A DNA stretch of 64,000 nt from a virus. Lineage: Duplodnaviria > Caudoviricetes. The notes beneath the pieces are model-generated. The model was not told where the DNA came from and ran no database searches. It was given only the letters and a program-made list of their open reading frames with translations. Below, one piece after another: positions 6,002 to 38,984 of this stretch. Each line of letters starts with the position of its first letter. Position 1 is the first letter of the stretch. The stretch lies in IMG/VR virus record IMGVR_UViG_3300035698_029580. One strand, 5' to 3'. The position numbers and the translations under genes were made by a program.

Positions 6002-6222
6002 CATTAGATTGGGTTGATTTTATGTAAGTAATGATTTTGCAAAGGTTTATGAGTAAATATTATTAGATTACAACAAATAAATTAGTAAATAACAGGGTTT
6101 TTTGTCATTTGAGCAGGCAGGATATTTGTGTTCCTGTCTGTTCTTTTTTATTTTCCAGCATTATAAGGGATAAGAGAATAGAGTGTGAGAAAAGTAGATT
6201 TTCAAATTGAGAGGCAATAATT

Positions 6223-6516
6223 ATGTTTTTGAAAGAAGTTGTTAACATTGATGAGGCAGTTGATTATTTGAATGAATTATTCAGAATTGATACTATAGCA
6301 ATAAGACATTTAGTTAATAATAGGATATTATGCAACACTGAATTAGCAAATCATCCTACATGTCAAGTTTGTAGATCTGCGATTGATGGTAGAGATAGGG
6401 TGGGTATTTTGGGAGTAATTAATGGCATGTTTGGGACATCACAAAATGGGAGGGGTACCATATGTGCTAATTTTGATGAGACGGGAGAATTACAGGGATT
6501 TTCACGTTTGGGATAA
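6223..6516 (+). CDS. Hypothetical protein
   Basis: ORF with header motif and GAGG RBS. Confidence 0.75.
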   Translation: MFLKEVVNIDEAVDYLNELFRIDTIAIRHLVNNRILCNTELANHPTCQVCRSAIDGRDRVGILGVINGMFGTSQNGRGTICANFDETGELQGFSRLG

Positions 6517-6623
6517 TTTTAGCACCGCGAAAAATTTTCCAGCAAAATATGGATTTTTCTATATAAGTGTGGTAAATTGAAAAAATGTTATTATTTTTTG
6601 GAAAAAATTATTAGGAGTCAGAC

Positions 6624-7349
6624 ATGGTTTCAGCAGTAGCATTAGATAGGATTATTAGTAATTTGTCAATTTTTGATGTCTCACAGAGCAAAATGAGATT
6701 AATTAATGATAAATTTCGTCAATCACGGTCGAAGAAAGCTATTCGTATTCGTGAATGGATTAACCAATATCTTCAAAATGGTATTTGGACTAACATAGAA
6801 TTGAAGAAAAAATATCCTGCTGTTTCTATTGTACATCTAGCGGCTGATGAACATGGTGGAATTGATGATGCTTATGTTTCCCAAATAGATTGGATTTCTA
6901 TTGCAGATGCTCAATCTGCTCCCTATTTTGTATTACCATCGGCCAATTGTGGGATAGGCTTGGTTTCTGCAGTATCCTCGACTGAATATAGAGGGAAATT
7001 TAAGGGATGGACATCTTCGTGTACCGAATATTTTTTGGTTGGTAGAAATGAAGCAGGAACATTTTTTGCCCATAGAGTAACACAATCCAATAGTGTGGAG
7101 GAGGCAATTAATTGGATTTGGGGAGGACGATCTAAGCAGATTGTTCGAAGACAGGGGGATATTGCAATTATTAAGGGATCTGGACCAAAGGGATTAGATA
7201 AATTACCTTTTGGGCATAATGTACAAGGCAATTATATTGTACATGATACTCATCCTCCAATTGCAATTCCTGGGAAGGGGGAAAGAATTATTATAGGTCG
7301 TAGGGCTGCTCAAAAGGGTCATGGAACATTTAGTCAAACAAGGGACTAA
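6624..7349 (+). CDS. Hypothetical protein
   Basis: 241-aa ORF; AGGAG RBS; flanked by identical 31-bp repeats (6514, 7366). Confidence 0.8.
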   Translation: MVSAVALDRIISNLSIFDVSQSKMRLINDKFRQSRSKKAIRIREWINQYLQNGIWTNIELKKKYPAVSIVHLAADEHGGIDDAYVSQIDWISIADAQSAPYFVLPSANCGIGLVSAVSSTEYRGKFKGWTSSCTEYFLVGRNEAGTFFAHRVTQSNSVEEAINWIWGGRSKQIVRRQGDIAIIKGSGPKGLDKLPFGHNVQGNYIVHDTHPPIAIPGKGERIIIGRRAAQKGHGTFSQTRD

Positions 7350-7454
7350 GATAACAAATTTTAAATAATTTTAGCACCGCGAAAAATTTTCCAGCATTAA
7401 AATAAGTAATATATAGTAGTAGTTAAAATATTTCATTGAAAGTGAGGTAATAAG

Positions 7455-9134
7455 ATGACTGTACAGACGAAAAATTTGGAAATGCATCCGAAACTTTTGT
7501 TGGATGTCATAAAAAGACAGGCTGGGACGTTGGAAAAGGCTGTTCTAGAAGGGGTTATGAACGCAATTGAGGCAGGTGCCAATAAGGTAGATATCAAGTT
7601 AGACCCTGACAATTCAGTTCTTTATATTTCTGATGATGGGCATGGGATTACTAGTGAGAAGGAAATTGAGCAATATTTTGCTACATTTGGAACACCTCAT
7701 GAGAAGTCAGAGAACAAGATTTGGGCTCAATTTCGAATGGGAAGAGGGCAATTATTTTCTTTTGGCAAAAATATTTGGGAAACATCTAATTTTAAGATGA
7801 AGGTTGATATTAAGAACTGGGGACTTGTATATAAATTAAAGAAAATAAAGGTTCCTGTTAATGGATGTAATATTAAGATTGAATTATATGAAAATCCTAT
7901 TGGTAAATGGAATTATCCTACTATAGATTCTTTTAAGGACAGAATTCAACATCACGTTCAATTTATGCCTCTTCCCATATATTTTAATGGGAAACAAATT
8001 AATACTCCTGCCACTGAAATACAATGGGATAAGGAAGATGAAAATGCTTATTATTCCTTTGGGCTTGGATTGGATATGAGTATTTATAATTTGGGTGCTT
8101 TTGTGACCAAATTGCCAGTTAGTCAGACGGGAGTGCCGGGGGTTGTTGTATCTAAGAAGCAATTAGGGGTGAATTTTGCTCGTAATGATATTCAGTCTAG
8201 TTGTCCTGTTTATAAGGAAATTCAGGAAGTTATTAGAGAAAATAGGATTAAAAAAACTAGAAGGAAGAGTGGACTTCGTTTGACTCATTATGAACGTCAA
8301 ACAACACTGACTGATATACGTGATGGAATTCAAAAATATGATGAAGTTAAGAATATTGGTTTATTGTTAACATCTTCTGGAAGATATATAACACTGGAAC
8401 AAATTCGTAAGAATAAGCAATTTTGGTGTTTTGCTCCTGAGGGAAATAGGATGGCTGATAATCTTATGGAGCAAGGTGCGGCACTGGTCTTTGAAGATGT
8501 TGTTTTGTCGAATTTGAATTATACTGGTGAGAGAAGGAATTTTTTCTCATGGTTATTGCAATATCAAGAAGATTTGGTTAGGGGATGGGATACTGTAGTT
8601 AAATTACATAGGGAATTTCAGGGTAAGGGTTCTTTGACGGATGGATTTTTGGAAAACTATATTACTTTAGCAGATCTTAAATTAAATATTGTAGAGAGAA
8701 GGGTATTAAAAGCCTTGAACAAAATGAGATATTGGAAAGATAGGATTATTACTATTGGAACAAGTGATAGTGCTAGGGCTTGGACTGATGGTAATTCTTT
8801 TATTACTCTTAATCGTAGTTTTATCAAGGGTTTATGTTTGTCTGATGCTGGGAATGTTGCTCAATTATTTGCTGTATTGGTTCATGAATTGGCACATGAT
8901 GATAGTACTATGGGTTCTCATATTCATGGAGAGGAATTTTATCGTAATTTTCATGAGATTTGTATGAGTAAGAGATGGGATACTAATCCATTAAGTGAAA
9001 TACGTTATTTTTCTCAAGTTATGCAAAATTTTCGGGTAGATGAAAAAATTCAAAAAATAAAGGAAAAAGAAGAAAAGGCTAAAGTTAAGAGAGACAAGAA
9101 GTTAGGTGTCGTAATGGCACAATCTTCTATTTAA
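7455..9134 (+). CDS. GHKL (HATPase_c) ATPase with C-terminal HEXXH metallopeptidase-like motif
   Basis: EGVMNAIEA, DDGHG, QFRMGRG; VLVHELAH..H. Confidence 0.8.
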   Translation: MTVQTKNLEMHPKLLLDVIKRQAGTLEKAVLEGVMNAIEAGANKVDIKLDPDNSVLYISDDGHGITSEKEIEQYFATFGTPHEKSENKIWAQFRMGRGQLFSFGKNIWETSNFKMKVDIKNWGLVYKLKKIKVPVNGCNIKIELYENPIGKWNYPTIDSFKDRIQHHVQFMPLPIYFNGKQINTPATEIQWDKEDENAYYSFGLGLDMSIYNLGAFVTKLPVSQTGVPGVVVSKKQLGVNFARNDIQSSCPVYKEIQEVIRENRIKKTRRKSGLRLTHYERQTTLTDIRDGIQKYDEVKNIGLLLTSSGRYITLEQIRKNKQFWCFAPEGNRMADNLMEQGAALVFEDVVLSNLNYTGERRNFFSWLLQYQEDLVRGWDTVVKLHREFQGKGSLTDGFLENYITLADLKLNIVERRVLKALNKMRYWKDRIITIGTSDSARAWTDGNSFITLNRSFIKGLCLSDAGNVAQLFAVLVHELAHDDSTMGSHIHGEEFYRNFHEICMSKRWDTNPLSEIRYFSQVMQNFRVDEKIQKIKEKEEKAKVKRDKKLGVVMAQSSI

Positions 9135-9162
9135 TTGACAAGTGATTAATTATTGGTATAAT
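9135..9162 (+). promoter_or_regulatory. sigma70 consensus promoter
   Basis: TTGACA-N16-TATAAT with TG extension. Confidence 0.7.
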
Positions 9163-9174
9163 AAGGGAATTAAA

Positions 9175-9468
9175 ATGATTAGAAAAATAATAAATATTTT
9201 TAGAAAGTCAAGAAAACCTACAGAAGTAATTGAATCTGTAGAAGTTGAAAAAGAAATTAAGTCTGGAGAAAATGAAGCTAAAAAGGCTTTTAGACCTATA
9301 GTAGATAATTTTGCAAAGAAAATTAAATCTATAGGAGAAGAATTTGAAAAGGAAATTAAATCTATAGAAGAAGAATTTGAAAAGGAAATTAAAGAAGAGG
9401 GGAAAAGAAAAAGAGAGATAATGTCTCAATGGTATGAGAATAATAAATTTAAAAAGGAAGGAAGTTAA
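9175..9468 (+). CDS. Hypothetical coiled-coil protein with 11-aa tandem repeat
   Basis: KEIKSI(G/E)EEFE repeats; start placed downstream of the promoter. Confidence 0.65.
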   Translation: MIRKIINIFRKSRKPTEVIESVEVEKEIKSGENEAKKAFRPIVDNFAKKIKSIGEEFEKEIKSIEEEFEKEIKEEGKRKREIMSQWYENNKFKKEGS

Positions 9469-9469
9469 G

Positions 9470-9745
9470 ATGCATATTTTGTTTTTAATTTTTCTTGCAC
9501 TGGTCTTATTTTTCGTGATATATCCGAAAATTAAAAAAAGTGATAAGGTTAATAAATATGCTAAAGAGTTGTTGGAAGATGTTCCAGTTACTAAAAGTGT
9601 AGATGAAAAGATTACTAATGTAGAGAAAGGAATTAATGATTTAGAAAATTATTCAGAAGAGAATAAGAAGAAGCAGAAAGAGTTAGGATTAGAAAGTGAA
9701 AAGATAGATAAGTTTATTGGAAAGGACTTAGAAAAAGATGAATAA
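9470..9745 (+). CDS. Membrane-anchored coiled-coil protein
   Basis: N-terminal TM helix; precedes SPFH gene. Confidence 0.7.
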   Translation: MHILFLIFLALVLFFVIYPKIKKSDKVNKYAKELLEDVPVTKSVDEKITNVEKGINDLENYSEENKKKQKELGLESEKIDKFIGKDLEKDE

Positions 9746-11060
9746 GAAGCAGATCGTTTGGATTTCGATTGCGGCAGTTATAGTGATAGGATTTATTATT
9801 CTTGTAGCAGGTGGTATTGGCAAGAACAATGATCAAAATTGGCAGGTTATTCAAAGTGTCGGTGGGGCAGTAGTTATTAGAGATAAAGCAGGATATTATC
9901 CCAAATGGTTTGCCACTGTTTGGACATATCCTCGATATGTTGAAGCCACTTATAATGATGATGCTAGTGAAGGTGAGAAACCTAAGGAATCTATTCGGGC
10001 AACGTTTAATGATGGTGGCACTGCTGATGTTTGTACTTATGTAAGAATTTCAACTCCTGTATTAGAGGATAAACGTAAGGAATTTCATCGTCAATTTAGT
10101 GGTAACGTTCAAAATGCAACAATTGCAGTTCGTAATCATATGATAAACTGCATTAAGGCTGCAGCTCCGCTGATGAGTGCCTCAGAAAACCAATCTGCCC
10201 GTAAAGCAGAATTTGCTCAAGTAATTGAGAATATGCTAAAAACTGGTTTGTATAAGATGAATAAGATTGAAAAGGAATTAAAAGATCGTACAGATGAGAA
10301 GGGTAATCCTATCACTGTTTATGCTACGGAAATTATTGTAGACGGAGATGGTAATCCTATTATTTCTCAAAGTTCTCCTTTGGAGGAATATGGTATTTGT
10401 GTTATTCAATTTTCTGTAACTGCTATTGAGTATGATGAAATAACTCGTGAACAATTTGCTGCTAAGAAACAGAGTTTTCTACGTGCAGAGAATTCTAAGG
10501 CAGAACGAGAAGAGATGGTTCAAGGGCGTCTGATGATCATAGAAAAAGGTTTGAAGGACAAGGCAGAAGTTGAAGCAACAGCTAATAAAGATAAGGCTAA
10601 GGCAATTATTGAGGCTGAGAAAAAAGTTGAGTTAGCAGAGAAGGCTAAGCAAGAGGCTGAAACTCAGGCTAATATGAGGCTTGAGGTTGCTAAGATTGCT
10701 AAGATGGAAGCTGAGACTAAGGCAAATCAGGAGTTAGAAGTTGCTAAGGTTGGGGCAATGGCTGCTGAACAGGAAGCCAAAGCCATTCAGATATTGGCAA
10801 TTGCTCAAGAGGAAAAGATTAAGAAGGCTGGAGCGATTACCGAGAAGGAAAGGGTCACTCTTCAGATTGCTGCCGACCGTGATGCTCAGGTTGCTAGTTT
10901 TTTAGCAAATGTTAAGACTCCTCAGATTGTATTTAATGGAGGATCTGAGGCAGGTGGAAGTAATTGGAAAGATACTCTGATGAATTTGTACCTTTTGAAG
11001 CAAATGAAGGCTCTTCCAAGTGATGATGTTGTGCCTGTAATGGAAGCAGCCACAAATTAA
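9738..11060 (+). CDS. SPFH/Band 7 (flotillin-like) membrane protein
   Basis: N-terminal TM, FNDGG motif, long A/E-rich coiled coil. Confidence 0.8.
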   Translation: MNKKQIVWISIAAVIVIGFIILVAGGIGKNNDQNWQVIQSVGGAVVIRDKAGYYPKWFATVWTYPRYVEATYNDDASEGEKPKESIRATFNDGGTADVCTYVRISTPVLEDKRKEFHRQFSGNVQNATIAVRNHMINCIKAAAPLMSASENQSARKAEFAQVIENMLKTGLYKMNKIEKELKDRTDEKGNPITVYATEIIVDGDGNPIISQSSPLEEYGICVIQFSVTAIEYDEITREQFAAKKQSFLRAENSKAEREEMVQGRLMIIEKGLKDKAEVEATANKDKAKAIIEAEKKVELAEKAKQEAETQANMRLEVAKIAKMEAETKANQELEVAKVGAMAAEQEAKAIQILAIAQEEKIKKAGAITEKERVTLQIAADRDAQVASFLANVKTPQIVFNGGSEAGGSNWKDTLMNLYLLKQMKALPSDDVVPVMEAATN

Positions 11061-11080
11061 ATAAGTTACTCACTTTCAAG

Positions 11081-11136
11081 CTCCCTCTTCTATCTAATTG
11101 TTACTGCCCTTACAATTGATAGAGAGGGAGTTTTTT
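11081..11136 (+). terminator. Intrinsic terminator abutting header motif
   Basis: CTCCCTCT/AGAGGGAG stem plus T-tract. Confidence 0.7.
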
Positions 11137-11208
11137 ATTTTCCAGCATTATATAATTTTTAATAATAACGTAGAAATTAATTATTACTTTATTGAAAGTG
11201 AGGTAAGA

Positions 11209-11979
11209 ATGAAGCCGAACGGAATTGTGATTTATGATGGACCGAGTAAGATTGATGGAAAGCCGATTATTTGTGTTGTTACAGGGCTTAGGGACAAAAC
11301 TGATAATGCTAAGACAGGCAGAGTTTTACAAAGTTGGATAATTCGTAAGGATATGACACCTGTTGACGCTTTAAAGACAGGTCAGGATTATAGTCTTTGT
11401 GGATCATGCAAACATCGTCATTTTCGGACGTGTTATGTTACGGTGCATATGGCACCCCAGTCTGTTTATGCTGCATATAAGAGGGGTGTTTATCCTCATA
11501 TTTCTGCAGAAAACAAGCAATTATTTGAAGGAAAAATTCTTAGGATAGGCAGTTATGGTGAGCCTACTGCTATTCCTTTTGAAGTTTGGGAAAATATCAT
11601 TAGTATAACTAATGGTCATACCAGTTATACTCATAGATGGAAGAAGTGTGATTCACGTTTTAAAGATATCTGTATGGCAAGTGTGGACACTTTAGCAGAG
11701 CTAAATGCTGCTCAGGCAAGGGGTTGGAGAACATTTAGGGTAAGGCTTGAAAATGAGCAAGTTATGCCTTATGAATTTGTATGTCCAGCTAGTAATGAGG
11801 CAGGTAATAAGACTAATTGTGCTAGTTGTAAGAACTGTCGTGGTGGTAGTTTAGAGCAAAATTCTAAGTGTCCTGTTATTATTGTTCATGGTAGTCCGAC
11901 TAAAATGGTATGTTATAAGAAGAAGATTAAATTATTCAGAGAAAAAAGGGCATATGCTAGGAATTTTCCAGCATTATAA
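11209..11979 (+). CDS. Cys-rich conserved phage protein (GP88-like, degenerate radical-SAM-like)
   Basis: NAKTG, CGSC..CY, LRIGSYGEP, YTH, C-terminal CPA..CASCKNC. Confidence 0.6.
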   Translation: MKPNGIVIYDGPSKIDGKPIICVVTGLRDKTDNAKTGRVLQSWIIRKDMTPVDALKTGQDYSLCGSCKHRHFRTCYVTVHMAPQSVYAAYKRGVYPHISAENKQLFEGKILRIGSYGEPTAIPFEVWENIISITNGHTSYTHRWKKCDSRFKDICMASVDTLAELNAAQARGWRTFRVRLENEQVMPYEFVCPASNEAGNKTNCASCKNCRGGSLEQNSKCPVIIVHGSPTKMVCYKKKIKLFREKRAYARNFPAL

Positions 11980-12016
11980 AAAATTATGTAATAAGATAAG
12001 AAAGAGGTAAAAAATT

Positions 12017-12319
12017 ATGAGTAAGATAAATGAAATAACAGGTCAATTACTTTTTAGGGATAGGGGATCTGCTAGTTCAGTTAAACCGAATGATGATAGA
12101 CAGTTATGGATGGTTACAGGTATTATAGCTGTACCTAACACTGAAATTGTTACTTCTCAATTAAAAGGTGAACATCAGTATGTAGTAACTGGGGATCAAC
12201 TTATCGAGGATAGTATTATACGATTAAATATTTTTCAAGGTTTAAATGTTGATAGGACTGAGATATCACGTGGGGCATATCCAGGACAATTATTGTGTTC
12301 TCCAATTTGGAAGATTTAA
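12017..12319 (+). CDS. Hypothetical protein
   Basis: ORF behind header motif, GAGG RBS. Confidence 0.7.
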   Translation: MSKINEITGQLLFRDRGSASSVKPNDDRQLWMVTGIIAVPNTEIVTSQLKGEHQYVVTGDQLIEDSIIRLNIFQGLNVDRTEISRGAYPGQLLCSPIWKI

Positions 12320-12349
12320 TTTTCCGGCAAAAAAGAAAGTGAGAAAAAG

Positions 12350-12853
12350 ATGAAGTATGAGGCAGAAATTGCAATTTTGATGCAAGATGGAAAATGGAAT
12401 GTAGATGTAGTAAAATTTTATTGTGCTACCATAAATGCTACTACTCCTGTAGAAATTGGAGAAGAAATTGAGAAAGCAGCATTGGAAAAATTTAGAAATA
12501 ATACGGATTTTATTGAATCTTTGTATAATTCTGGATGGAATGGTTGTGCCATTGTTTATTCATGGAAACAAATAAAAGATGATGGAGGAAGAGTTATTAA
12601 ACTTCCTTGTTATGATATAGTAGTTACATTAGATAGTGAGGTATCTGATCAAATTACTTCATCTTTACATAAAAATAGCACCGTTATGGAAGAGGAAGAT
12701 GTACAATATCAAGCTGCTATAGATGCTATTGAGTCAATTATAATGGCTCATGCTGTGGCAGGGGTAGACATAGAGACTCCTGCATATCTTGAGGGGATAG
12801 AGACAGCAGTAAATGCAATTGGTCAGAATTTTCCCATACCAGACGAAGATTAA
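12350..12853 (+). CDS. Hypothetical acidic protein
   Basis: ORF behind variant motif TTTTCCGGCA. Confidence 0.7.
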   Translation: MKYEAEIAILMQDGKWNVDVVKFYCATINATTPVEIGEEIEKAALEKFRNNTDFIESLYNSGWNGCAIVYSWKQIKDDGGRVIKLPCYDIVVTLDSEVSDQITSSLHKNSTVMEEEDVQYQAAIDAIESIIMAHAVAGVDIETPAYLEGIETAVNAIGQNFPIPDED

Positions 12854-12856
12854 ATT

Positions 12857-13048
12857 ATGTTTATTATTGTAACAGAAGATGAGAAGATAGCAATTTCTTA
12901 TTTAGGAAATAGAAGTTTTGATATTTGTGTTCAATCTTCTCCTTCTATAAAAATATGGAGAACTGAAAAAGATGCTTATAGATCTTTAAATAGATTGAAA
13001 AAAATGAGTCCTATGGGTTCTCGGATAATGAAAGTTAAAGAAAAATAA
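12857..13048 (+). CDS. Hypothetical protein
   Basis: Tightly packed co-oriented ORF. Confidence 0.55.
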   Translation: MFIIVTEDEKIAISYLGNRSFDICVQSSPSIKIWRTEKDAYRSLNRLKKMSPMGSRIMKVKEK

Positions 13049-13103
13049 ATAAAAGTGATAATATTTCCATTATAATACATTCAATTATATGAAAGGAAAT
13101 ATT

Positions 13104-13460
13104 ATGAGTGAAGAGAGAATTGACATGTACGGTATTTTAGATGACCCGAATATGACAATTGAGGTAGAAACATCAGATGGTTTATTGAAAAATATTTCTG
13201 GCTTTAATCGTTATATTATTTTCCAGGGTAGTCATGAGAAAAATACTAAAGGAAAAATTTACAAAGTAACAGAAGAGGGAACAAAATTTCAAGGTTATGT
13301 TGATTGTGATGAGGCTTTAAGTCTAATCAAAAAATGTAAAAGGGAGGATAGGGGAAGAGGTACAATTTTGTATGATGGAAGATGGAGATTATGGGATTGG
13401 GAGAAGGATGCAGAAAAAGTTATTAAGAAAAGGGTTAAAAAAGACGTAAAGAAAAGTTAA
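13104..13460 (+). CDS. Hypothetical protein
   Basis: ORF with AAGGA RBS. Confidence 0.7.
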   Translation: MSEERIDMYGILDDPNMTIEVETSDGLLKNISGFNRYIIFQGSHEKNTKGKIYKVTEEGTKFQGYVDCDEALSLIKKCKREDRGRGTILYDGRWRLWDWEKDAEKVIKKRVKKDVKKS

Positions 13461-13511
13461 TTTTCCAGCATTATAAAATTTGTGGCATTAAAATAAAAAC
13501 GGATCACTAAA

Positions 13512-13694
13512 ATGAAATTTAAATACACAAGAGTATTAGTTAGAACTATCGAAGTTAAATCGGAGTGGTATCCTAAAGGATCTACTAAGGAAGATATATT
13601 AAGAATTGAAAAAGAGAATGCAAATGATGATCCAGAGATGCTTTTTAGTACATGTGATGAAGATATAATTACAGTAGAAATTGTTGAAGAATAA
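13512..13694 (+). CDS. Hypothetical protein
   Basis: ORF behind header motif. Confidence 0.65.
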   Translation: MKFKYTRVLVRTIEVKSEWYPKGSTKEDILRIEKENANDDPEMLFSTCDEDIITVEIVEE

Positions 13695-13707
13695 GTGAGG
13701 ATTTCAG

Positions 13708-14667
13708 ATGTCGCATTTTACAGTATTGGTAATTGGACCTAAGAATGAAATAGAATTGGAAGAAGCTTTATATCCTTTTTGGGAATTGGATTTATCAGAA
13801 GAAGAGATGTTAAATGACCCAAGGGCTGTTTTTCAGATTGAAACAACTTCTGAGCAAGCTCAAGAAAAATATAATGCATTTGTAAAGAAATTACCTACTG
13901 CAAAACAAATTAGATATGCTTTTGATAATCTTTTGAGAAATGCAGATATTAATAGTATATCTCGTACACCACAACCTATTGATAAAGAAAAATTTGAGAA
14001 ATGGTGTGAAGATAATATTTTAGACCCTTATTGTGTGAAGGACAAGAGTACTATCACTAAGTTTCCAGATGTAGAAACATATATGAGGGAATATGAAGGA
14101 CAGAGGAAGGATGAGAAAGGTAATTGGGGTTGGTATAGAAATCCTCGATGTACTTGGGATTGGTATTTGGTGGGAGGTCGTTGGGCTGGATTTTTCAGAG
14201 TTAAAGAAGGTGCAGTAGGTGTACAAGGTCATCATCGAGCAAAGGATTTTGCTAATATAACAGGTGAAGTAGTAGAAGATTTAGCTAAGAATAGTGCTGA
14301 TATTGTGAAGGTGGGAGACATTGATTTTGAAGCCATGGAACAGGCTAATAAAGAAAAAAGGAAGAAGTGGTGGAAAGAGGCTTTTGAAAAGTATCCTAAT
14401 GATGCAAAAACGAGAAATTTAATTTTTTCTATTCAAGAAGATGATATTTTGGAGGAATATATTGCCAGGGAAAATAAATTTTCTACTTTTGCTGTTTTGA
14501 AGCAAGATGAAAATGGAGAATGGCAATGGTATGAGAGGGGAAAAATGGGTTTTTGGGGAATAGTATCAGATGAAAAAGAAGATGATAAGTGGGATGAGGA
14601 ATTTGAAAAGTTGATAAATGGTTTATACCAAGACACTGTTTTGACTTTGGTAGATTGTCATATTTGA
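13708..14667 (+). CDS. Conserved phage protein (MSHFTVLV / WDWY..GGRW family)
   Basis: MSHFTVLVIG, NP..WDWY.VGGRW, terminal LVDCHI. Confidence 0.75.
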   Translation: MSHFTVLVIGPKNEIELEEALYPFWELDLSEEEMLNDPRAVFQIETTSEQAQEKYNAFVKKLPTAKQIRYAFDNLLRNADINSISRTPQPIDKEKFEKWCEDNILDPYCVKDKSTITKFPDVETYMREYEGQRKDEKGNWGWYRNPRCTWDWYLVGGRWAGFFRVKEGAVGVQGHHRAKDFANITGEVVEDLAKNSADIVKVGDIDFEAMEQANKEKRKKWWKEAFEKYPNDAKTRNLIFSIQEDDILEEYIARENKFSTFAVLKQDENGEWQWYERGKMGFWGIVSDEKEDDKWDEEFEKLINGLYQDTVLTLVDCHI

Positions 14668-14678
14668 TAGGAGAAAAA

Positions 14679-15143
14679 ATGGCAGAATTAAAAATTATAA
14701 AAGGTGATGCCACTGATCCTAATTTGGCTGATGATGCTCGTATTTGTATTCCTCATGTATGTAATGACATAGGAGCATTTGGAGCCGGATTTGCTAAGGC
14801 ATTAGCAGATAAATGGCCTCGTGTGAGACGGGCATATATTGATGAAGGAGATTGGTTATTGGGTGCTAATATATATGCCAAGGCAACAGATAATATTGCT
14901 ATTTGTCATATGATAGCTCAGCATAATTTAATTGGTAAAGATAATCCTCATCCTTTGAGATATTTGGCACTGATTAGTTGTATGAAAAAAGTTGGTGTTA
15001 GGGTTAACGGACATAAAGGTACTATTCATTGTCCGTTATTTGGAAGTGGATTAGCTGGAGGTTCTAAGTTTGCTATTGTACAATTGATGAAAGAGATATG
15101 GGTAGAAAAGGGAATTGACGTAACGGTTTATGAATTACCATAA
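14679..15143 (+). CDS. Macro domain protein (Poa1p/DarG/TARG1-like)
   Basis: KGDAT, HVCND.G.FGAGFA, CP.FGSGLAGG. Confidence 0.85.
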   Translation: MAELKIIKGDATDPNLADDARICIPHVCNDIGAFGAGFAKALADKWPRVRRAYIDEGDWLLGANIYAKATDNIAICHMIAQHNLIGKDNPHPLRYLALISCMKKVGVRVNGHKGTIHCPLFGSGLAGGSKFAIVQLMKEIWVEKGIDVTVYELP

Positions 15144-15160
15144 TTTTGAGAGGTAAAAAA

Positions 15161-15460
15161 ATGAAAATGATGAAATTAATTCCAATTTTGGGAATTATTG
15201 GGGCAATTTTAATTGTATCTGTTTTAACAGTAATGATATGTATTAGTTATTTTGGTATGAGCAGAGAAGAGTCTCTTATTTCTTCTACTCCGGAAAATTC
15301 TTTTTCTTATTCAGGAATTTATACTAAAAGGGTTTATGGGCATGGTCATTTATCTGGAATTGGAGTAGATTGCATTCAAAATGATAAAGGTGAAATAACT
15401 AACATTATTGTTGTAAACAGTTATGGAATAACAATTTACAGGGATATTACTTTTGATTAA
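15161..15460 (+). CDS. Membrane-anchored hypothetical protein
   Basis: N-terminal TM; GAGG RBS. Confidence 0.65.
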   Translation: MKMMKLIPILGIIGAILIVSVLTVMICISYFGMSREESLISSTPENSFSYSGIYTKRVYGHGHLSGIGVDCIQNDKGEITNIIVVNSYGITIYRDITFD

Positions 15461-15512
15461 TAATTTTCCAGCATTATAAAATTTTTTGTAATAAAATAAA
15501 AACGGGAAAATT

Positions 15513-15791
15513 ATGATTTGTTTAAAGTGTGGATACTGTTGTAAATATTTAAGTGTGATAATAGTAGATGACCCTAAAAAAGGGATTGTTGAAGATAATC
15601 TTATTCACCATAGGGGTGACGGTACTCCGTGTAAACACTTGAGGGGAAGTAAGTTAGGAGAGTATTCTTGTGCTATTCATTCTGAACCGTGGTACAAAGA
15701 TACACCTTGTTTTGCTCATACTCAAGTAGAGCAAAAAAATAGTAAATGTAGAATGGGTGATTATTTATTTTCCAGCATTATAAAAAAATAA
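15513..15791 (+). CDS. YkgJ-like cysteine cluster protein
   Basis: CLKCGYCC..PCKHL..CAIH..C. Confidence 0.7.
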   Translation: MICLKCGYCCKYLSVIIVDDPKKGIVEDNLIHHRGDGTPCKHLRGSKLGEYSCAIHSEPWYKDTPCFAHTQVEQKNSKCRMGDYLFSSIIKK

Positions 15792-15817
15792 GTAATAAAA
15801 TAAAAAAGGAATTAAAA

Positions 15818-16051
15818 ATGGCAAAACGAAGAAATCCTATGACAGAACAAGAAACAGCAGATTTTGAAAAAAGGCTGTTGGAAATATGGAGGACTGTTTA
15901 TAATAAAGCTATAAATTCAGGTGCTTTTCCCGATGAGTATTTTGAGTTTGGCGACCATACTATGGCAGAAATTGCAGCTGTTGTTATGGGTGACGAATTC
16001 TCTTTTAATTCACAAGATAAGAAACTTTTGGATAACTTCAGAAAATTTTAG
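15818..16051 (+). CDS. Hypothetical protein
   Basis: ORF behind header motif. Confidence 0.7.
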   Translation: MAKRRNPMTEQETADFEKRLLEIWRTVYNKAINSGAFPDEYFEFGDHTMAEIAAVVMGDEFSFNSQDKKLLDNFRKF

Positions 16052-16062
16052 GAGTAATTAAA

Positions 16063-16572: not shown

Positions 16573-16624
16573 TTTTCCAGCAAAATAAAAAAAATAGATA
16601 TACAAGTATAAAGTGAGAAAAAAA

Positions 16625-16810: not shown

Positions 16811-16830
16811 TTTTACAGGAGAAAAAATTT

Positions 16831-18150: not shown

Positions 18151-18167
18151 GTTTTTTTGTTTTGCTT

Positions 18168-18201
18168 AAACCGCCAGAATATTATTTTCTGGCGGTTTTT
18201 T
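18168..18201 (+). terminator. Intrinsic terminator
   Basis: AAACCGCCAGAA/TTCTGGCGGTTT plus T-tract. Confidence 0.8.
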
Positions 18202-23583: not shown

Positions 23584-23859
23584 ATGAGTAAGATAATTAG
23601 ATCATTTGAGTGTGGGTGTGTAACACTGGAGGGAGGCAGGAGAATACTTTGCCCGTCTTGTGCTGTCGGTAAAAAAGGTGCTGAAGATTTTATTAGTGAT
23701 CGTCTAAGAGAAGATTATAATACTATTTTAATTGCCGCAAAAAATATTTGTTATCGTATAAAAGTTGCAAAAACTGGCAGACATAGTTTTGATGAATTCT
23801 TAGAAAAAGGTGGCTGCGAAGAATTAAATAGAATTATTGAAGAAGTTGCTAGAAGATGA
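23584..23859 (+). CDS. Zn-ribbon hypothetical protein
   Basis: CGC..CPSC. Confidence 0.6.
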   Translation: MSKIIRSFECGCVTLEGGRRILCPSCAVGKKGAEDFISDRLREDYNTILIAAKNICYRIKVAKTGRHSFDEFLEKGGCEELNRIIEEVARR

Positions 23860-24788
23860 AACAAGAAACAATTCTACAAGAACAAATAGAAAATCCTCAT
23901 TATTTGGTAGTGGCTGGAAGTCGTCTATATGGCACTGTTAGACCAGAATCAGATGATGACAAAAGGGGATTTCTTATTCCTCCATTTGATTATCTACTGG
24001 GTATTAAATCATTTCAGGAGGGTTCTCTTCCAGGTCAAGATTATAAGGTTTTTTCCTTACACCGTTTTCTAAAATTGTGTTTGGGAGGAGATCCTCTTTG
24101 TACAGAAATGTTGTTTGTGTCTGGAGATAAAGTTCTCAAGACTTCTTTTTATGCTCAAAAAATTATTGGAATTAGAGATAAGATTGTTAGTCAGAGAATG
24201 TGCAATAGAGTAATTGGATATAGTTATAGTGAGTGGAGAAAAGCATTTGGTCAAAAATTAGAAATTGATAAGAGAACAAAAACAGAAGATGATGTTATAA
24301 ATGATATTCGTAATCTGTTTGCTCCTGATAAAGAAGATATGGATGAAGTTATTAAAATCCTATTTTCTAAACATCCCAGGAAGATTGTTGCTGCTACCAG
24401 AAAATTAGGTGCTAAGAGAAAAGAGCAGATGGAGAAATATGGATATTGTGTCAGTTCAGCTACTCATTCTATCAGGCTTTTAGGTCAATTATATGAGATA
24501 TTGACAGAGGGGAAGATGACATTTCCTCGTCCTAATGCTGATATTTTGAAGGAAATTAGAACAGGGAAGATGTCTAAAGATGAATTAGAAGATATTTATA
24601 ATGATATTTTGAGACAGGTAGAAGAAGCTAAGTTGAGTACTGACCTAAGGTTAAAGCCAGATGAAAATTTTGTTTGGGACACTTATAGAAATATAATTGT
24701 TGATTTTTTCAAAGATGATGAGTATTGTAAAAAGTTAATGTCTTCTGAATATAGGATTAATAGTGATAGTTCAAGATATTATTTTTAA
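23856..24788 (+). CDS. Pol-beta superfamily nucleotidyltransferase (Nuc-transf/RlaP-like)
   Basis: VAGSRLYG..ESDDDKRG, HSIRLL, L.EIR.G. Confidence 0.85.
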   Translation: MKQETILQEQIENPHYLVVAGSRLYGTVRPESDDDKRGFLIPPFDYLLGIKSFQEGSLPGQDYKVFSLHRFLKLCLGGDPLCTEMLFVSGDKVLKTSFYAQKIIGIRDKIVSQRMCNRVIGYSYSEWRKAFGQKLEIDKRTKTEDDVINDIRNLFAPDKEDMDEVIKILFSKHPRKIVAATRKLGAKRKEQMEKYGYCVSSATHSIRLLGQLYEILTEGKMTFPRPNADILKEIRTGKMSKDELEDIYNDILRQVEEAKLSTDLRLKPDENFVWDTYRNIIVDFFKDDEYCKKLMSSEYRINSDSSRYYF

Positions 24789-24846
24789 TTTTCCAGCATT
24801 ATAAAATAATATCCTATATAATAGGAATTGACAAGTGAATAGAGTT

Positions 24847-25035
24847 GAGATTGTGGCGGAATTGGTAGACGCATCGGTCAGTAGGTAAGAGGGACGTGCC
24901 TCCTATAGGAAACGCAGGGCGAACATCCTCTTTTAATGTGGATACAGAAGTCGTGCTACACCGCTTATGACACTAGTGGAGTGGTGTCATAAGGCCATTA
25001 GCCGAGCCGTGCAGGTTCGAGTCCTGTCAATCTCA
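24847..25035 (+). ncRNA. tRNA-like RNA A; anticodon loop replaced by 122-nt structured insert
   Basis: Acceptor GAGATTG/CAATCTC; D-arm GCGGAATTGGTAGACGC; stem TCGGT/GCCGA; T-arm GCAGG-TTCGAGT-CCTGT. Confidence 0.85.
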
Positions 25036-25084
25036 ACTCTATTTTTTATTTTCCAGCATTATAATTTTATTAGGAATAAGACAA

Positions 25085-25420
25085 ATGGCAACAACAAAAA
25101 AACAATTAAAAGAATTATTTAAACATAATACGGAAAAATCGTATAAGATATATATGAGAAATGACGGAGATGGATGGATTGACTGTTATGGTATTAGTAT
25201 TTTACTTTTTATAGAAAATCTTTTTATTCCAGATGAAATTAAAAATTGTTATAGCAAAGCGATGAATAAAAATTGTATTATTTTGGCAAATTTTACGGGG
25301 AAAAATTCTTTATTGGCTAGAGAAGAAAATTCAAATTGTAGTATTCGTGCCAACAAATCTTTTGAAAAATATAAAAGATGGCTTCATCAAATTTTAGAAA
25401 TAAAAACCTTGAAAGGATGA
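25085..25420 (+). CDS. Hypothetical protein
   Basis: Cassette ORF. Confidence 0.65.
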   Translation: MATTKKQLKELFKHNTEKSYKIYMRNDGDGWIDCYGISILLFIENLFIPDEIKNCYSKAMNKNCIILANFTGKNSLLAREENSNCSIRANKSFEKYKRWLHQILEIKTLKG

Positions 25421-25424: not shown

Positions 25425-25826
25425 ATGTTTATTTTTGTTATTATTTGCATTGTCATTATGGTCATGAATGTTTTGTTTATGATTTATTTGAACTGGAACA
25501 AAAAACATCAAGAAAAATATAATAAAACAGTTGATAGGTTGATGGAGAACTATAAAACAACCATAGAGCACTATAAAACAGCCATTGAAAAATATAAAGA
25601 ACTATTAAAAATTCGTGAAGAAATTTTTGAAAATAATAAATCTCTTGCGAAAATTAGTAAAGAAATGATTGAAAATTATGAAAAAGTTGTAGAGACATAT
25701 AAAAATGTCTGTAAGTGTGCTTTGGCAGATTTAGAAGGTGTGATGTATTTGATAGAGCCAGATGGAGAAAGGGAACATCCTGCCTGGAAAACTATTGAAG
25801 AGTTGAGAGAAGTTATTAAACTGTAG
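25425..25826 (+). CDS. Membrane-anchored coiled-coil protein
   Basis: N-terminal TM; ExYK heptad repeats. Confidence 0.7.
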   Translation: MFIFVIICIVIMVMNVLFMIYLNWNKKHQEKYNKTVDRLMENYKTTIEHYKTAIEKYKELLKIREEIFENNKSLAKISKEMIENYEKVVETYKNVCKCALADLEGVMYLIEPDGEREHPAWKTIEELREVIKL

Positions 25827-25962
25827 GGTATTAAAAATTGAATGTTTTTTGTGTCAGTTGATTGACACTCAGATCCCCTTGAGAAGAGAAGTAAAATTCT
25901 CTTCTTTTCTTTTTTCCAGCATTATTATTTTTTCTTCATTAAAATAAAAAAGGAAAAATAAG

Positions 25963-27531: not shown

Positions 27532-27581
27532 TTTTCCAGCATTATTATTTTTTTATTATTAAAATAAAAACGGAGAAAATT

Positions 27582-27893
27582 ATGGAATTTAATAAAGTGA
27601 CAGTTGGTTTTGTTGTTCAGCATTTTGTAGAAGGTCCGAATGGCAAGTCTATTTGTGATAAGCAAGAATTTGTGGCTGGAGACGATTGTTCTTATGAAGA
27701 TGCTGAGACAGGGGAAATTCTTTCTGATTTGCCAGATTATAAATATCAACCTTATGATATGGTACAACGTAGTTTTAACTGTCATTATTGTGGTATTGAA
27801 GCAGAAGGTGAATCTTTTTCAATAGGAGAAATAGAATTTTGTAGTGAAAAGTGTCTTTGTACTTGGAAGGCTAGTAACGAAAATTATGAATAA
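27582..27893 (+). CDS. Hypothetical protein with C-terminal TRASH-like Zn finger
   Basis: CHYCG..FCSEKC. Confidence 0.75.
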   Translation: MEFNKVTVGFVVQHFVEGPNGKSICDKQEFVAGDDCSYEDAETGEILSDLPDYKYQPYDMVQRSFNCHYCGIEAEGESFSIGEIEFCSEKCLCTWKASNENYE

Positions 27894-27943
27894 TTTTCCA
27901 GCAAAATAATTTTTCTGTCATTAAAATAAAAAAGGAAAAAATT

Positions 27944-28156
27944 ATGACAGAACATATTTTTCAAAAAAATGATAGTGTAAGATTGAAAGAGTTGATTGAT
28001 GGACTTGGACGACATCCCCTTGATAAATATATTGGCCAAAAAGGTGTAATAATTAAACCGGGAACAGGGAAAACTCTGGAAACAATGATTATTGTTAAAT
28101 TTGATAATGGTAAAGAAGATGCTTTTTGGCCAGAGGAGTTAGAGTCAATTTTATAA
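27944..28156 (+). CDS. Small SH3-like barrel protein
   Basis: F.K.D.V..YIG.KG.I..V.F..F.PEELE. Confidence 0.65.
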   Translation: MTEHIFQKNDSVRLKELIDGLGRHPLDKYIGQKGVIIKPGTGKTLETMIIVKFDNGKEDAFWPEELESIL

Positions 28157-28209
28157 TAATTTTCCAGCATTAAAATTTTTCTGCCATTAAAATAAAAAAG
28201 GGAAAAATT

Positions 28210-28488
28210 ATGACAGAACATATTTTTCAAATGACAATTAAACAGGCTCTTCAGGCAGTAATTGATAATTGTCCTAATCCCTATGCTAAACAGTATGTCG
28301 AGGTTATTCGTCGATCCTATGAAGAATATGGACAGCATGGGGTAAAGGTACAAATTCTTTATGTATTATCAAATATTCTTGATATTGACAAAGAAGAAGA
28401 GGCAGATTTATACTGGGAAGATTGTGAATTAAAAACAAAGGTCATTGAGACTTTTCAAAATTATCAAGAGGGTGATTGGAAACCATGA
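28210..28488 (+). CDS. Hypothetical protein
   Basis: Cassette ORF; same first 7 codons as 27944. Confidence 0.7.
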   Translation: MTEHIFQMTIKQALQAVIDNCPNPYAKQYVEVIRRSYEEYGQHGVKVQILYVLSNILDIDKEEEADLYWEDCELKTKVIETFQNYQEGDWKP

Positions 28489-28790
28489 AGTTATTTGTAG
28501 ATGACATTAGGGATGCTCCTGATAATTCTTGGGTTATAGCTAGAAATTTTGATAGTGTAATCGAGATATTGCAACATAGTCCAGTTTCTATTATTAGTCT
28601 TGATCATGATTTAGGCACTGACCAAAGTGGTTATGATATTGCTAAATGGATTGAGAAAAAAGTTTTTTGTGATGGATTATATCCTATTCCTGAGATTTTG
28701 TGTCATTCTCAAAATCCTGTAGGAAAGAAAAATATTCTTGCTGTTAATGAGGCTATTCAGAAGCATTTTAATAATTTTCCAGCAAAATAA
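28485..28790 (+). CDS. Cyclic-phosphate processing receiver-like (cREC) domain protein
   Basis: LFVDDIR.P, ISLDHDLG, GYDIAKW, HSQNPVG. Confidence 0.8.
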   Translation: MKLFVDDIRDAPDNSWVIARNFDSVIEILQHSPVSIISLDHDLGTDQSGYDIAKWIEKKVFCDGLYPIPEILCHSQNPVGKKNILAVNEAIQKHFNNFPAK

Positions 28791-28824
28791 TTTTTCTCCC
28801 ATTAAAATAAAAAAGGAAAAAATT

Positions 28825-29109
28825 ATGAATAATAAATCAAAAACTTTGGAGGAGATGGAAAAAATAGCGGAAGAGTGTGAAATAAAAGACAAGAGAGTGT
28901 CTAATTATTTTCGTTTGCAAGATTTTTCTAGGCCACAGGAAATTCCTGTTTCTCCTCCTAAATTAAAACCAATTAAACCTATGCCCAAGAAAACCCAACC
29001 TTTGAATTCTAAGTGTAATTGTGGTAGTGGTAAAAAATATAAGAAATGTTGTTTTTCTGGAAAAGAGAGATATAATAAAGTGAATAGAATTAAGACTGTG
29101 GCGGAATAG
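28825..29109 (+). CDS. SEC-C motif protein
   Basis: NSKCNCGSGKKYKKCC. Confidence 0.8.
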   Translation: MNNKSKTLEEMEKIAEECEIKDKRVSNYFRLQDFSRPQEIPVSPPKLKPIKPMPKKTQPLNSKCNCGSGKKYKKCCFSGKERYNKVNRIKTVAE

Positions 29110-37339: not shown

Positions 37340-37588
37340 ATGAAAACGTTGGATTATGACACACAGGGAGAACGAGCGGCTTTTAGAGTCACCAAAGATA
37401 TTCCTGTTGGGACATGGGTTCGTACTGCATGGGACTCCCCTGATCTAATGGACGGCATTCTCGTGGAAAATGAAAAAGACAGTGAATCTTACGTCGATGT
37501 CTTTTTTCCTTCTGGACTTCAGAGAATATCCAGAACACAAATTATTGGGACCGGGAATATGGTAGAAGCAAAAAACACAGGACTTTAA
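37340..37588 (+). CDS. Hypothetical protein
   Basis: Cassette ORF; AAGGAG. Confidence 0.7.
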   Translation: MKTLDYDTQGERAAFRVTKDIPVGTWVRTAWDSPDLMDGILVENEKDSESYVDVFFPSGLQRISRTQIIGTGNMVEAKNTGL

Positions 37589-37719
37589 TTTATAGAAAAG
37601 TAATTTTCCTATATGGGGTGGTAAGAGTTGTCAGATTTATCACTTCATTACATTTTCCAGCATTATATGTTTTTATAGTATATAGTGTAAGGAAAACAAA
37701 AAACAGAAAGGAAAAACAA

Positions 37720-37941
37720 ATGATAACAGTAAAACAATGTGTTGAGAATAAACTTAGAGCGTGTAATCCTTGTTCTTATCTGTCAATTAGAGAGGAAGTG
37801 AATTTGCAACAAACAGAATTTGATGATAATCAATTAGTAGATATTGATATATTTATTGAGCGTGCCATCAAAGAACTTATCAATGACAAGATTGCGGATT
37901 GTGTCGTTGGCGATAACGAATTTGTTTTGGATTTGCATTGA
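37720..37941 (+). CDS. Hypothetical protein
   Basis: Start reassigned to the ATG after header and RBS. Confidence 0.65.
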   Translation: MITVKQCVENKLRACNPCSYLSIREEVNLQQTEFDDNQLVDIDIFIERAIKELINDKIADCVVGDNEFVLDLH

Positions 37942-38023
37942 TAATTTTCCAGCATTATATGTTTTTATAGTATATAGTGTAAGGAAAACAAAACAAAAAA
38001 ACAAAAAACAGAAAGGGAAAAAC

Positions 38024-38221
38024 ATGCTAGCAGCAACGTATAAGACAAAGAAAGATTTAAAAGCAAGTATTGGCAAGTCACTAAGGTTCGTCGAGACAAG
38101 TATGTTTGGGGTTGAATATAAAGACACTGGTAAGTTTGCGGTGGTAGGACCGGCTCCTTATGATAGGAAATGGTATGCCGAAGTGACAATGGCAGACGGA
38201 GTTATTGTCAAGGTTAAGTAA
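38024..38221 (+). CDS. Conserved small phage protein
   Basis: YKTKKDLK.SIG..L...ETS.FG.EY..RKWYA.V. Confidence 0.7.
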   Translation: MLAATYKTKKDLKASIGKSLRFVETSMFGVEYKDTGKFAVVGPAPYDRKWYAEVTMADGVIVKVK

Positions 38222-38246
38222 TAAATGACTTTTCTGTTTTGTTTGG

Positions 38247-38285
38247 TAGGACGACGGGTTTACTCCCCCGTCGTCCTATTTTTTT
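38247..38285 (+). terminator. Intrinsic terminator running into header motif
   Basis: TAGGACGACGGG/CCCGTCGTCCTA; paralog at 38947. Confidence 0.8.
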
Positions 38286-38348
38286 CCAGCATTATATATT
38301 TTTATAGTATATAGTGTAAAGAAAACAAAAACAGGAAGGAAAAAACAA

Positions 38349-38921
38349 ATGACAAAAACACAAACTGAAAAAACCACGAAAATCCATCCTATTGCAACAG
38401 TCACTCCTACTCAATTGGTGGGTGAGTTACTGAAAATGGATGGGACTGGGACCAGCTTCGAGGGCATGGATTGCAAAGTTTTAGTCAAAATGAATAAGAC
38501 GGCAAAACGTGATGGAGTAAAATTTGAAAATCCTTATTTTGGTAAGGTTTATAAGTGCTATTCTGTTAGCACAATATCCAATGCCAATTATGAGAGAGCC
38601 GTCAACCGTCAACGTGAGAGAGAGGGCAAAGAAACTGATTTTGAGGCTCTTCCGAGAGTCTGGGGCGAAAGGGTTGGCAAAAGTCCTGTTATTCAACATA
38701 AAGGGCAATTCTACTTTGCCATACATGTTAAGACTCTCACCACAGACGTAACATATGAGGACGTAAACGGCAATGCCGTCGAGAAAGAAAGTATTGTTCA
38801 GTTTCTTCCCAAGAAGTCATCAAGTCGTCAAGGTGTCGAGAATGAGATTATTGTTAGGACGTATAAGATTGAGTCAATTCTCCAAATGAGAATGAAGGGT
38901 GGAACGTATATAGTAAAGTAG
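38349..38921 (+). CDS. Hypothetical protein, paralog of 33031..33615
   Basis: See paralog. Confidence 0.8.
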   Translation: MTKTQTEKTTKIHPIATVTPTQLVGELLKMDGTGTSFEGMDCKVLVKMNKTAKRDGVKFENPYFGKVYKCYSVSTISNANYERAVNRQREREGKETDFEALPRVWGERVGKSPVIQHKGQFYFAIHVKTLTTDVTYEDVNGNAVEKESIVQFLPKKSSSRQGVENEIIVRTYKIESILQMRMKGGTYIVK

Positions 38922-38946
38922 TAAATGATGCTCCTGTTTGGGTTGG

Positions 38947-38984
38947 TAGGACGGCAGGTTGAGGTAGCCTGTCGTCCTATTTTT
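38947..38984 (+). terminator. Intrinsic terminator ending the cassette array
   Basis: TAGGACGGCAGG/CCTGTCGTCCTA plus T-tract. Confidence 0.8.

Follow-up and report, generated by a model that had tools for sequence, protein, structure and literature searches.

The genome of an uncultured virus of the class Caudoviricetes, known from IMG/VR record IMGVR_UViG_3300035698_029580, carries a long row of small genes and RNAs that is divided into units by 48 exact copies of one short element, here called the header. Related phages differ from it, and from each other, by whole units whose ends lie in headers. The DNA analyzed, here called the window, is 64 kb long, with a G+C content of about 31% and with almost every gene on the + strand. 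The array occupies positions 6151 to 38921 of that strand. The headers and units discussed below also lie on the + strand, unless stated otherwise, and the protein, motif and RNA scans cover the window unless another scope is named.

The anatomy of the header, its conservation, and the indels that it bounds are observed directly. The reading that we prefer, and to which we give about an even chance of being right, goes further. Here, each header would be a promoter of a phage-specific class, and the promoter, simply by being repeated, would passively double as a point of recombination.

Anatomy and conservation of the header

The core of the header is a block of ten nucleotides (nt), TTTTCCAGCA, here called the 10-mer. 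Offsets are counted from its start, so that the 10-mer itself holds offsets 0-9. A motif scan finds 54 exact copies, 52 on the + strand and two on the - strand. If up to one mismatch is allowed, 64 matches are found, against 8.3 +/- 3.1 in shuffles that preserve dinucleotides. An earlier note on this DNA had put the number of copies in the array, all on one strand, at about 48; there are exactly 48 exact + strand copies between 6151 and 38291, where far fewer than one would be expected by chance. With two degenerate copies, each of these heads a unit. The range that the earlier note had set for the array holds for these 48 but not as a limit, since further copies lie at 4802-4932, 5171, 46025 and 52340.

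Over the array, the median distance between headers is 453 nt. Spacing analysis finds the densest part at 27532-38291, where 27 headers, mostly before units of a single gene, follow one another at a median of 376 nt and a mean of 413 nt, in agreement with the one copy per 300-400 base pairs (bp) that had been claimed for 27-38 kb.

A position matrix made from the 48 copies gives the layout. First comes a stop codon or the end of a run of T (TAA stands immediately 5' of the 10-mer in 22 of the 48, and TTA, the end of a T-run, in ten). The 10-mer is then followed by WWATAA at offsets 10-15, a T-rich variable spacer, the three nucleotides T28, A29 and T33 (each in 45/48), and finally AAAAA, a variable base, and GGA. 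The hexamer TAnnnT falls exactly at offsets 28-33 in 42 of the 48, the chance per site being 3.8%; in four of the six headers that lack it there, the box is displaced by 1-3 nt. TAAAAT accounts for 29 copies, and TATAGT or TACAGT for four. The first ATG stands mostly at offset 48-72, with its mode at 50-51. Thus, a motif that starts at a stop codon or T-tract and is followed by a fixed box and then by an ATG, as first described, is what the full set of copies displays.

The distance of TAnnnT is fixed to the 10-mer and not to the ATG. Further, the box is present in headers whose spacer and leader are otherwise unrelated, as TAGAGT, TATAGT, TAAGAT, TAGGTT or TATAAT. Such unusual headers include those at 6151 and 36743 (both TAGAGT), 24789 (TATAAT), 32960 (TAGGTT) and 52340 (TAAGTT), and the unusual headers of relatives likewise retain a TAnnnT box.

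The 10-mer, in turn, does not vary at all; the 54 exact copies and all headers of relatives share it. Between the window and related contigs, 22 pairs of orthologous headers can be compared. Identity in these is 100% in the 10-mer, 76% at offsets 10-15, 62% in the spacer, 90% at the box (28-33), and 86% at offsets 34-39. This profile points to selection acting on two elements in the DNA. As a separate observation, the spacer of many headers (23149, 29277, 34699, 35675, 36464) contains, 16-27 nt on, another TTTTCC, at about 19-20 nt from the first. Lying two helical turns away, it is a possible additional half-site for the header-reading factor; its conservation is weak.

Terminator hairpins run into the TTTT of the motif at 25912, 26703, 30683, 36464, 36743, 36997, 38282 and other sites. 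By a loose test, a hairpin lies upstream of 20 of the 48 headers, but 21% of random sites pass the same test. Strong terminators fused to the TTTT are convincing at roughly 10-14 of the 48; the remaining copies come directly after a stop codon.

An element that lies on the coding strand between nearly all genes, at many junctions that have no terminator, might act in RNA instead of serving as a promoter. Here, it would be a processing site of polycistronic transcripts or a leader bound by a protein, and the copies in the hub described below could pair as RNA stems of 10-18 bp. Units behind strong terminators would, however, still need a promoter. The fixed distance of TAnnnT across a freely varying spacer is a bipartite signature at the level of DNA, the header has no conserved RNA structure, and the window has no match in Rfam. 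Action in RNA is, in our estimate, highly improbable.

Gain, loss and exchange of whole units

A header scan of metagenomes found contigs with multiple copies in one sample series only, Ga0307375-79. Their identity to the window is 70-90%, and over 11.6-39 kb they are syntenic with it. Elsewhere, the header is absent: in IMG/VR a long pattern gave no matches and a 16-mer only single chance matches, reference genomes gave none, and the motif was not found in L116, a 17-kb locus of a distant relative. A literature search with the 10-mer returned only unrelated primers. Because it is missing from IMG/VR and from the reference genomes, the header family appears to be private to the lineage of this uncultured phage. 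The window itself has no DNA match to deposited phages by megablast, and at the protein level its identity to phage matches does not exceed about 27%, as with a 308-kb Tunturiibacter phage and the SPFH proteins of crAss-like phages.

The window was compared with the related contigs unit by unit, at the level of both DNA and protein. At both levels, conserved units are interleaved with units present in one genome only. The homology blocks have 59 distinct ends, and 48 of these lie, in one genome or more, within a header window; for random positions in one genome, the corresponding figure is 15%. With block ends so placed, and with crossovers that fall on the 10-mer (below), the comparison of related genomes bears out the proposal of the earlier note that the header is a cassette boundary.

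Relatives have four extra units between the window units 34159 and 35245, two between 36743 and 36997, and four between 28775 and 29277, and in place of 15146-15767 they have two foreign units. Conversely, window units 33676-34158 and 37270-37944 are not present in relatives. The first of these segments comprises two units that are missing from L001 by an indel from header to header; their headers, at 33676 and 33992, are identical through offset 39 and divergent beyond it. The second begins a run of four sub-family headers (37270-38330) with the box TATAGT or TACAGT, two of whose units are absent from L095. These four headers (37270-38282) are identical to one another at 34-36 of 36 positions over offsets 10-45, despite the unrelated genes behind them.

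Units are also duplicated and reordered. The tandem units 35245 and 35675 (35245-36094) encode paralogs of 122 amino acids that are 74% identical, where L020 has a single unit. In L114, the RNA equivalent to 29097-29280 comes with a header of its own and stands before the gene for a protein with a SEC-C motif; in the window, the RNA follows that gene. A slot after unit 29277 (29745-30197) is found in three states, with a unit of 453 nt in the window, a different unit of 349 nt in L033, and no unit in L045. In each state, conservation of the flanks extends right to the 10-mer, and the spacer moves together with the gene behind it. Headers also shift independently of genes, as with the like headers at 33676 and 33992 and at 37270-38282, and may differ before one and the same gene. 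That before 37048-37269, a gene whose product is 93% identical in L094, is of a different type in the two genomes, and between 34395 and 34414 the window is without 16 nt that complete a header in L064.

Pairs of nearly identical strains that differ by a whole unit place the crossover more narrowly. L064 and L001, with flanks that are 99.9-100% identical, differ by exactly one unit of 377 nt; an overlap of 19 nt between their alignments consists of the 10-mer, TTATA, and four bases beside them. L033 is set apart from L045 by one unit of 349 nt, and here the overlap is 13 nt. In the third pair, L005 and L045, the difference is one unit of 377 nt, and a header of about 65 nt is duplicated. The crossover window is thus 13-19 nt, with the 10-mer included, in two of the three.

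The mechanism that we propose starts from the repeats, in which the same 10-50 nt return at intervals of about 400 nt, all in one orientation. By recombination over short homology, or by replication slippage, between two headers, whole units would be deleted, duplicated, inserted or reordered, and every unit moved in this way would retain its own promoter. Junctions without scars, and crossover tracts that coincide with the one sequence in common, fit recombination or slippage between repeats.

Windows of 13-19 nt that always contain the 10-mer could also be the mark of a dedicated system. Here, the 10-mer would be the core site of site-specific recombination or nicking, an integron-like exchanger, with any promoter role secondary. 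Several slots do have three states, and the inverted copies in the hub could be a site of assembly. Among the approximately 90 window proteins scanned, however, no domain of an integrase, a transposase or any other recombinase was found. Further, the header has no potential to form a hairpin, and other junctions lie at offsets of about 30-40, over the duplicated header of 65 nt, or at boundaries that have no header. Junctions spread in this way fit exchange driven by homology, and not cleavage at one point. We consider a dedicated exchanger very improbable.

The earlier note had called the array integron-like, and both are, of course, rows of small, mostly unknown genes that run in one direction, with whole units present or absent between relatives. 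The likeness does not extend to the parts that make an integron work. Integron cassettes are promoterless, served by one common promoter, and bear a hairpin-forming attC on their 3' side, whereas every unit here begins, at its 5' side, with a promoter-like header. Hairpins resembling attC were sought at the header and rejected; when folded, the header (60 nt) has a mean minimum free energy of -5.2, compared with -4.0 for shuffles. IntI, the tyrosine recombinase of integrons, is not among the approximately 90 proteins. An integron-like mechanism is therefore not supported.

One candidate recombinase was considered and rejected. This is the protein of 465 amino acids encoded at 55652-57049, which has conserved Cys137, Cys140 and Cys166 and is labelled RecT-like in Tunturiibacter phage Tunturi_5. 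It has no sequence match in Pfam or PDB, and its structural model, although confident (predicted local distance difference test 83), resembles only weakly and in part the OB-fold domains that bind single-stranded DNA (RPA- or SSB-like). A relative that is 91% identical occurs in ENA metagenomes.

The header as a proposed promoter

The headers at 24789, 31869, 33992 and 36743 precede strongly folded RNAs that have no open reading frame (ORF) and that end in a run of T. In the unit at 24789-25048, the header leads into a long RNA closed by a helix of 16 bp, and the T-run passes into the next header; in that at 36743-36996, a terminator hairpin of 13 bp abuts the next header. Because headers stand before structured RNAs that lack ORFs, the signal would act at transcription, and not at translation. 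Likewise, for a gene behind a terminator, transcription has to be started afresh, and among conserved sequences the header alone is a candidate for this.

In the reading that we prefer, TTTTCCAGCA and the WWATAA that follows would together take the place of a -35 element, and TAnnnT, which follows at a distance of exactly 18 nt from the 10-mer, would be a -10 box of the sigma-70 type. Transcription would start near offset 40, often at a step from C to a purine. Several standard headers do have C at offset 39 and a purine at offset 40, and a C followed by a purine 7 nt after the -10 box is the usual context of a start. The transcript would then begin with a very short leader holding an AAGGA ribosome site, or with the 5' end of a structured RNA. 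The reader of the header may be the core polymerase of the host together with a sigma factor supplied by the phage, or with an activator that remodels sigma, as at the middle promoters of T4. A phage-specific reader is suggested because the 10-mer is not a -35 element of the host type and never varies.

We infer all of this (promoter activity, start site, reading factor and, as above, the mechanism of recombination) from sequence. On that footing, the proposal of a non-sigma70 promoter made in the earlier note survives, with an invariant box at the place of the -35 element, a fixed TAnnnT, the same orientation as the genes, and a position at the head of units that hold only RNA.

A -10-like box of the sigma-70 type would also be at home in an ordinary early promoter that the main sigma factor of the host reads alone, the 10-mer then being an upstream element homogenized by gene conversion. 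Here, TTTCCA matches four of six positions of the host -35 consensus, TTGACA, and a consensus scan finds it at 30684. The promoter-early stem-loops (PeSLs) of T4-like phages, moreover, are promoters of the host type (PMC2839356). The match comes, however, with a spacer of 21 nt; at a spacer of 18 nt stands CCAGCA, which matches only two of six positions. The invariance is also stricter than a -35 element needs, being 100% where the genomes compared differ elsewhere at 10-30% of sites. Reading by the host sigma alone we regard as improbable.

Several observations weigh against the preferred reading itself. The commonest header has GGA at offsets 40-42, so that, with a start near offset 40, the mRNA would begin right at its ribosome site. 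In five short headers (4923, 12320, 25049, the family of 30198, and L064 at position 87), the ribosome site is at offsets 19-26 and the ATG at 30-37, both upstream of that start. These headers speak likewise against the start about 7 nt after TAAAAT that the earlier note had expected. The short header at 25049-25087, with AGGA at 23-26 and ATG at 36, lies directly behind a strong terminator. In that at 30198-30234, compared with its relatives, the ribosome site is in the spacer and the ATG at offset 34; an arginine codon of this family, AGA, is CGT in relatives, and because the change preserves the amino acid, the start codon is probably translated. At 32165, the RNA begins as early as offset 18, and there is no -10 box. 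No sigma factor, MotA-like protein, AsiA-like protein or recombinase was found by Pfam scans of the window proteins. As for exchange, L035 and L031 part at a gene boundary that has no header, downstream of which they are 99.8% identical, and a unit of one relative begins at 25566, inside the window ORF 25425-25826. Finally, selection for intact units of promoter plus gene would by itself enrich breakpoints at headers, whatever the mechanism. In one relative, a gene is a hybrid of two window paralogs, and its breakpoint is not at a header.

The short headers bear directly on a different kind of promoter, a compact one recognized by a polymerase of the phage T7 kind or by another non-sigma polymerase. 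Here, the promoter would be TAA-TTTTCCAGCA-TTATA, with a start at about offset 15; ATTAAAATAAAAA-GGA would be the 5' leader, and recombination between repeats would proceed as in the preferred reading. Ribosome sites at 19-26, and an RNA that starts at offset 18, can be used only if transcription begins before about offset 18, and the standard header would gain an ordinary leader of about 35 nt. The absolute invariance of the 10-mer is that of promoters for single-subunit polymerases. Those of the T7 kind are single contiguous conserved elements of about 19-23 bp, whose 3' edge is the start site, and the 10-mer with WWATAA agrees with this. Like these, the header would have a near-invariant contiguous element of about 19 nt ending in (C)A(T/C)TATA and a purine, placed directly behind stop codons or terminators. 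Its layout would be an AT-rich block, a specificity block, TTTCCAGCA, and then TTATA plus A, that is, CATTATA and a purine. T7 promoters, of which that phage has about 17 copies, have CACTATA and then G. Crossovers lie on the 10-mer plus TTA or TTATA, the sole part common to all header types, and facing copies in the hub, beside an AT-rich region with iterons, recall replication origins primed from promoters.

A compact promoter would, however, leave the second conserved box, 18 nt downstream, without an explanation, and this TAnnnT is present at 28-33 in 42/48, is 90% identical in orthologues, and recurs in unrelated headers. Nor does the window hold a gene for such a polymerase, having no ORF above 615 amino acids. 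We judge the compact promoter unlikely. Two candidates for the start site follow from these readings: the sigma-type start near offset 40, which we think about as likely to be right as wrong, and the compact, T7-like start near offset 15, which is doubtful.

The hub and the outlying copies

To the left of the array, at 4802-4932, lies a hub in which motif scan and repeat analysis find five copies of the 10-mer on alternating strands, within a 60-bp tandem unit. Its inverted arms are perfect over 13-18 nt. The three copies on the + strand all lack TAnnnT at offset 28. A hexamer TATAAT or GATAAT directly precedes the copies at 4863, 4923 and 5171. The last of these (5171-5180), a lone copy that the motif scan finds after GATAAT, has no downstream box.

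Next to the hub, over about 900 nt, lies non-coding DNA that is rich in A and T and has iteron-like repeats. By way of speculation, the hub may be a site where the factor that reads the 10-mer is bound or titrated, or an origin primed from a promoter. The neighboring region itself (3900-4800), just left of the hub, has no convincing ORF; it contains a direct repeat of 39 nt at 4114 and 4171, and five copies of an iteron-like unit of 22 nt at 4136-4242. Either a replication origin or an end region of the genome could lie here. A strong promoter of the host type considered at about 4682 was rejected, its -35 element matching at only three of six positions and the promoter scan not listing the site.

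A bolder proposal joins hub and array. Here, the 10-mer would be the site of one new, dedicated phage factor, sigma-like or associated with the polymerase, that switches on the cassettes together and is titrated or autoregulated at the hub (4802-4932, a possible origin), with bound or transcribed sites as the preferred places of crossover. We consider this quite unlikely. If true, one signal would couple the expression of cassettes to their exchange.

The two degenerate copies within the array both lie at unit boundaries. At 12320-12352, TTTTCCGGCA (one mismatch) is fused to a ribosome site, with ATG at offset 30 and with neither spacer nor TAnnnT. At 32165-32339, TTTTCCAGTA (also one mismatch) is followed by eight A and then by an RNA unit paralogous to the 31869 unit, again with no spacer or box. 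Beyond the array, the motif scan finds a header at 46025-46034, before the gene 46135-46542, and another at 52340-52349, with TAAGTT at offset 28-33, before the gene 52421-52837.

Relation to known promoter repeats

PeSLs are mobile regulatory cassettes known from the T4-type phages RB49/phi1, T4/PST and KVP40/nt-1 (Arbiol et al., 2010, PMC2839356; Comeau et al., 2014, PMC4122927). About 50 of these composite repeats of promoter and terminator lie in hyperplastic regions, each filling the space between the stop codon of one gene and the ribosome site of the next; most of the indels between RB49 and phi1 have them as boundaries (PMC2839356). The earlier note had compared the header with PeSLs, aptly, to judge from PMC2839356. 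In both, promoter motifs recur between genes, beginning at a stop codon and reaching the ribosome site of a small ORFan gene, and copies may be joined to a terminator hairpin. In both, the motif also sets the limits of indels and replacements that distinguish related phages, and a gene that moves brings its own promoter. Excised mini-circles that carry one chimeric motif are a further mark of PeSLs. Here, 48 copies stand before small genes with unknown functions in 33 kb of variable region, and the motif bounds insertions, deletions and replacements, with exceptions at boundaries that have no header.

The differences are as clear. PeSLs match the sigma-70 consensus of the host at both -35 and -10, whereas here an invariant and unrelated 10-mer replaces the -35 element. 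The stem-loop is part of only a minority of header copies, about a third. The homology at crossovers is as short as 13-19 nt, compared with about 100 bp in PeSLs, and the phage is uncultured and has no DNA-level relative among deposited phages.

The promoter proposed here also has a counterpart in the middle promoters of T4, where a MotA box (TGCTTtA) centred at -30 is combined with a sigma-70 -10 element, and sigma is appropriated by MotA and AsiA. As there, a box specific to the phage would stand where a -35 element is expected and be paired with a -10 box of the sigma-70 type, the combination being repeated dozens of times ahead of early or middle genes. The box here has, however, a different sequence and lies further upstream, at -40 to -25 from the presumed start, and no homologue of MotA or AsiA was found in Pfam scans of the window.

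Thus, the array is not a new kind of mobile-gene system; it works like PeSLs, minus a promoter that matches the host consensus. The principle of PeSLs, that repeated promoters serve as joints for the shuffling of genes, is extended from T4-like phages to an unrelated, uncultured phage, where it operates with a start signal not of the host type and with crossover tracts of 13-19 nt. An invariant 10-mer predicts, further, a phage transcription factor or a polymerase specificity that could be identified. It also makes the header a marker with which the accessory cassettes of this phage lineage can be delimited and compared in metagenomes.

Contents of the units and neighboring genes

Each unit holds one to about five small genes, or a structured RNA with no ORF. 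The description in the earlier note (one to three small genes or a non-coding RNA) is therefore right as to kind and too low as to the number of genes. The proteins of the array are mostly ORFans. Pfam matches were obtained for five of 44 small proteins (cREC_REC, DUF7417, DUF2958, SEC-C and DUF4446), and no known anti-defence family is among them. The larger genes encode a GHKL ATPase, a DndB-like protein, a DNA methyltransferase, a radical SAM enzyme, and an RlaP-type nucleotidyltransferase. Domain scans of the window identified no array protein as having an anti-defence or host-takeover function, the cargo that the earlier note had supposed.

The RlaP-type nucleotidyltransferase (23856-24788) and one small cREC_REC protein, a receiver domain that processes cyclic phosphates, are found among RNA units that are tRNA-like. 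Because these lie together, a theme of RNA repair is suggested for part of the cargo. Neither the window nor the related loci contain tRNA genes. The structured RNA at 29097-29280, with a closing helix of 16 bp, is 97.8% identical to its counterpart at 4054-4235 of L114, where neighboring genes are 70-90% identical; the 5' strand of the L114 helix is the same as that of the RNA at 24789.

Two paralogs, 33031-33615 and 38349-38921, whose products are 69% identical, stand on either side of the densest 5 kb of the array. In L001, a copy of this paralog is joined directly to the 34159 unit.

Outside the array, six paralogous genes lie in tandem at 151-3536. Their products are about 100-130 amino acids long, with a mutual identity of 24-34%. 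Beside them, the ORF 560-1408 (282 amino acids) has an N-terminus like that of type IV pilins. The GC skew of the segment 151-3536 is reversed relative to the rest of the window. At 49846-52325, a gene for a GNAT acetyltransferase fused to a nucleotide-sugar dehydratase/epimerase is followed by one for a synthase of the NeuB family; judged by these assignments, the genes would provide for the synthesis of a sugar like sialic acid within the phage.

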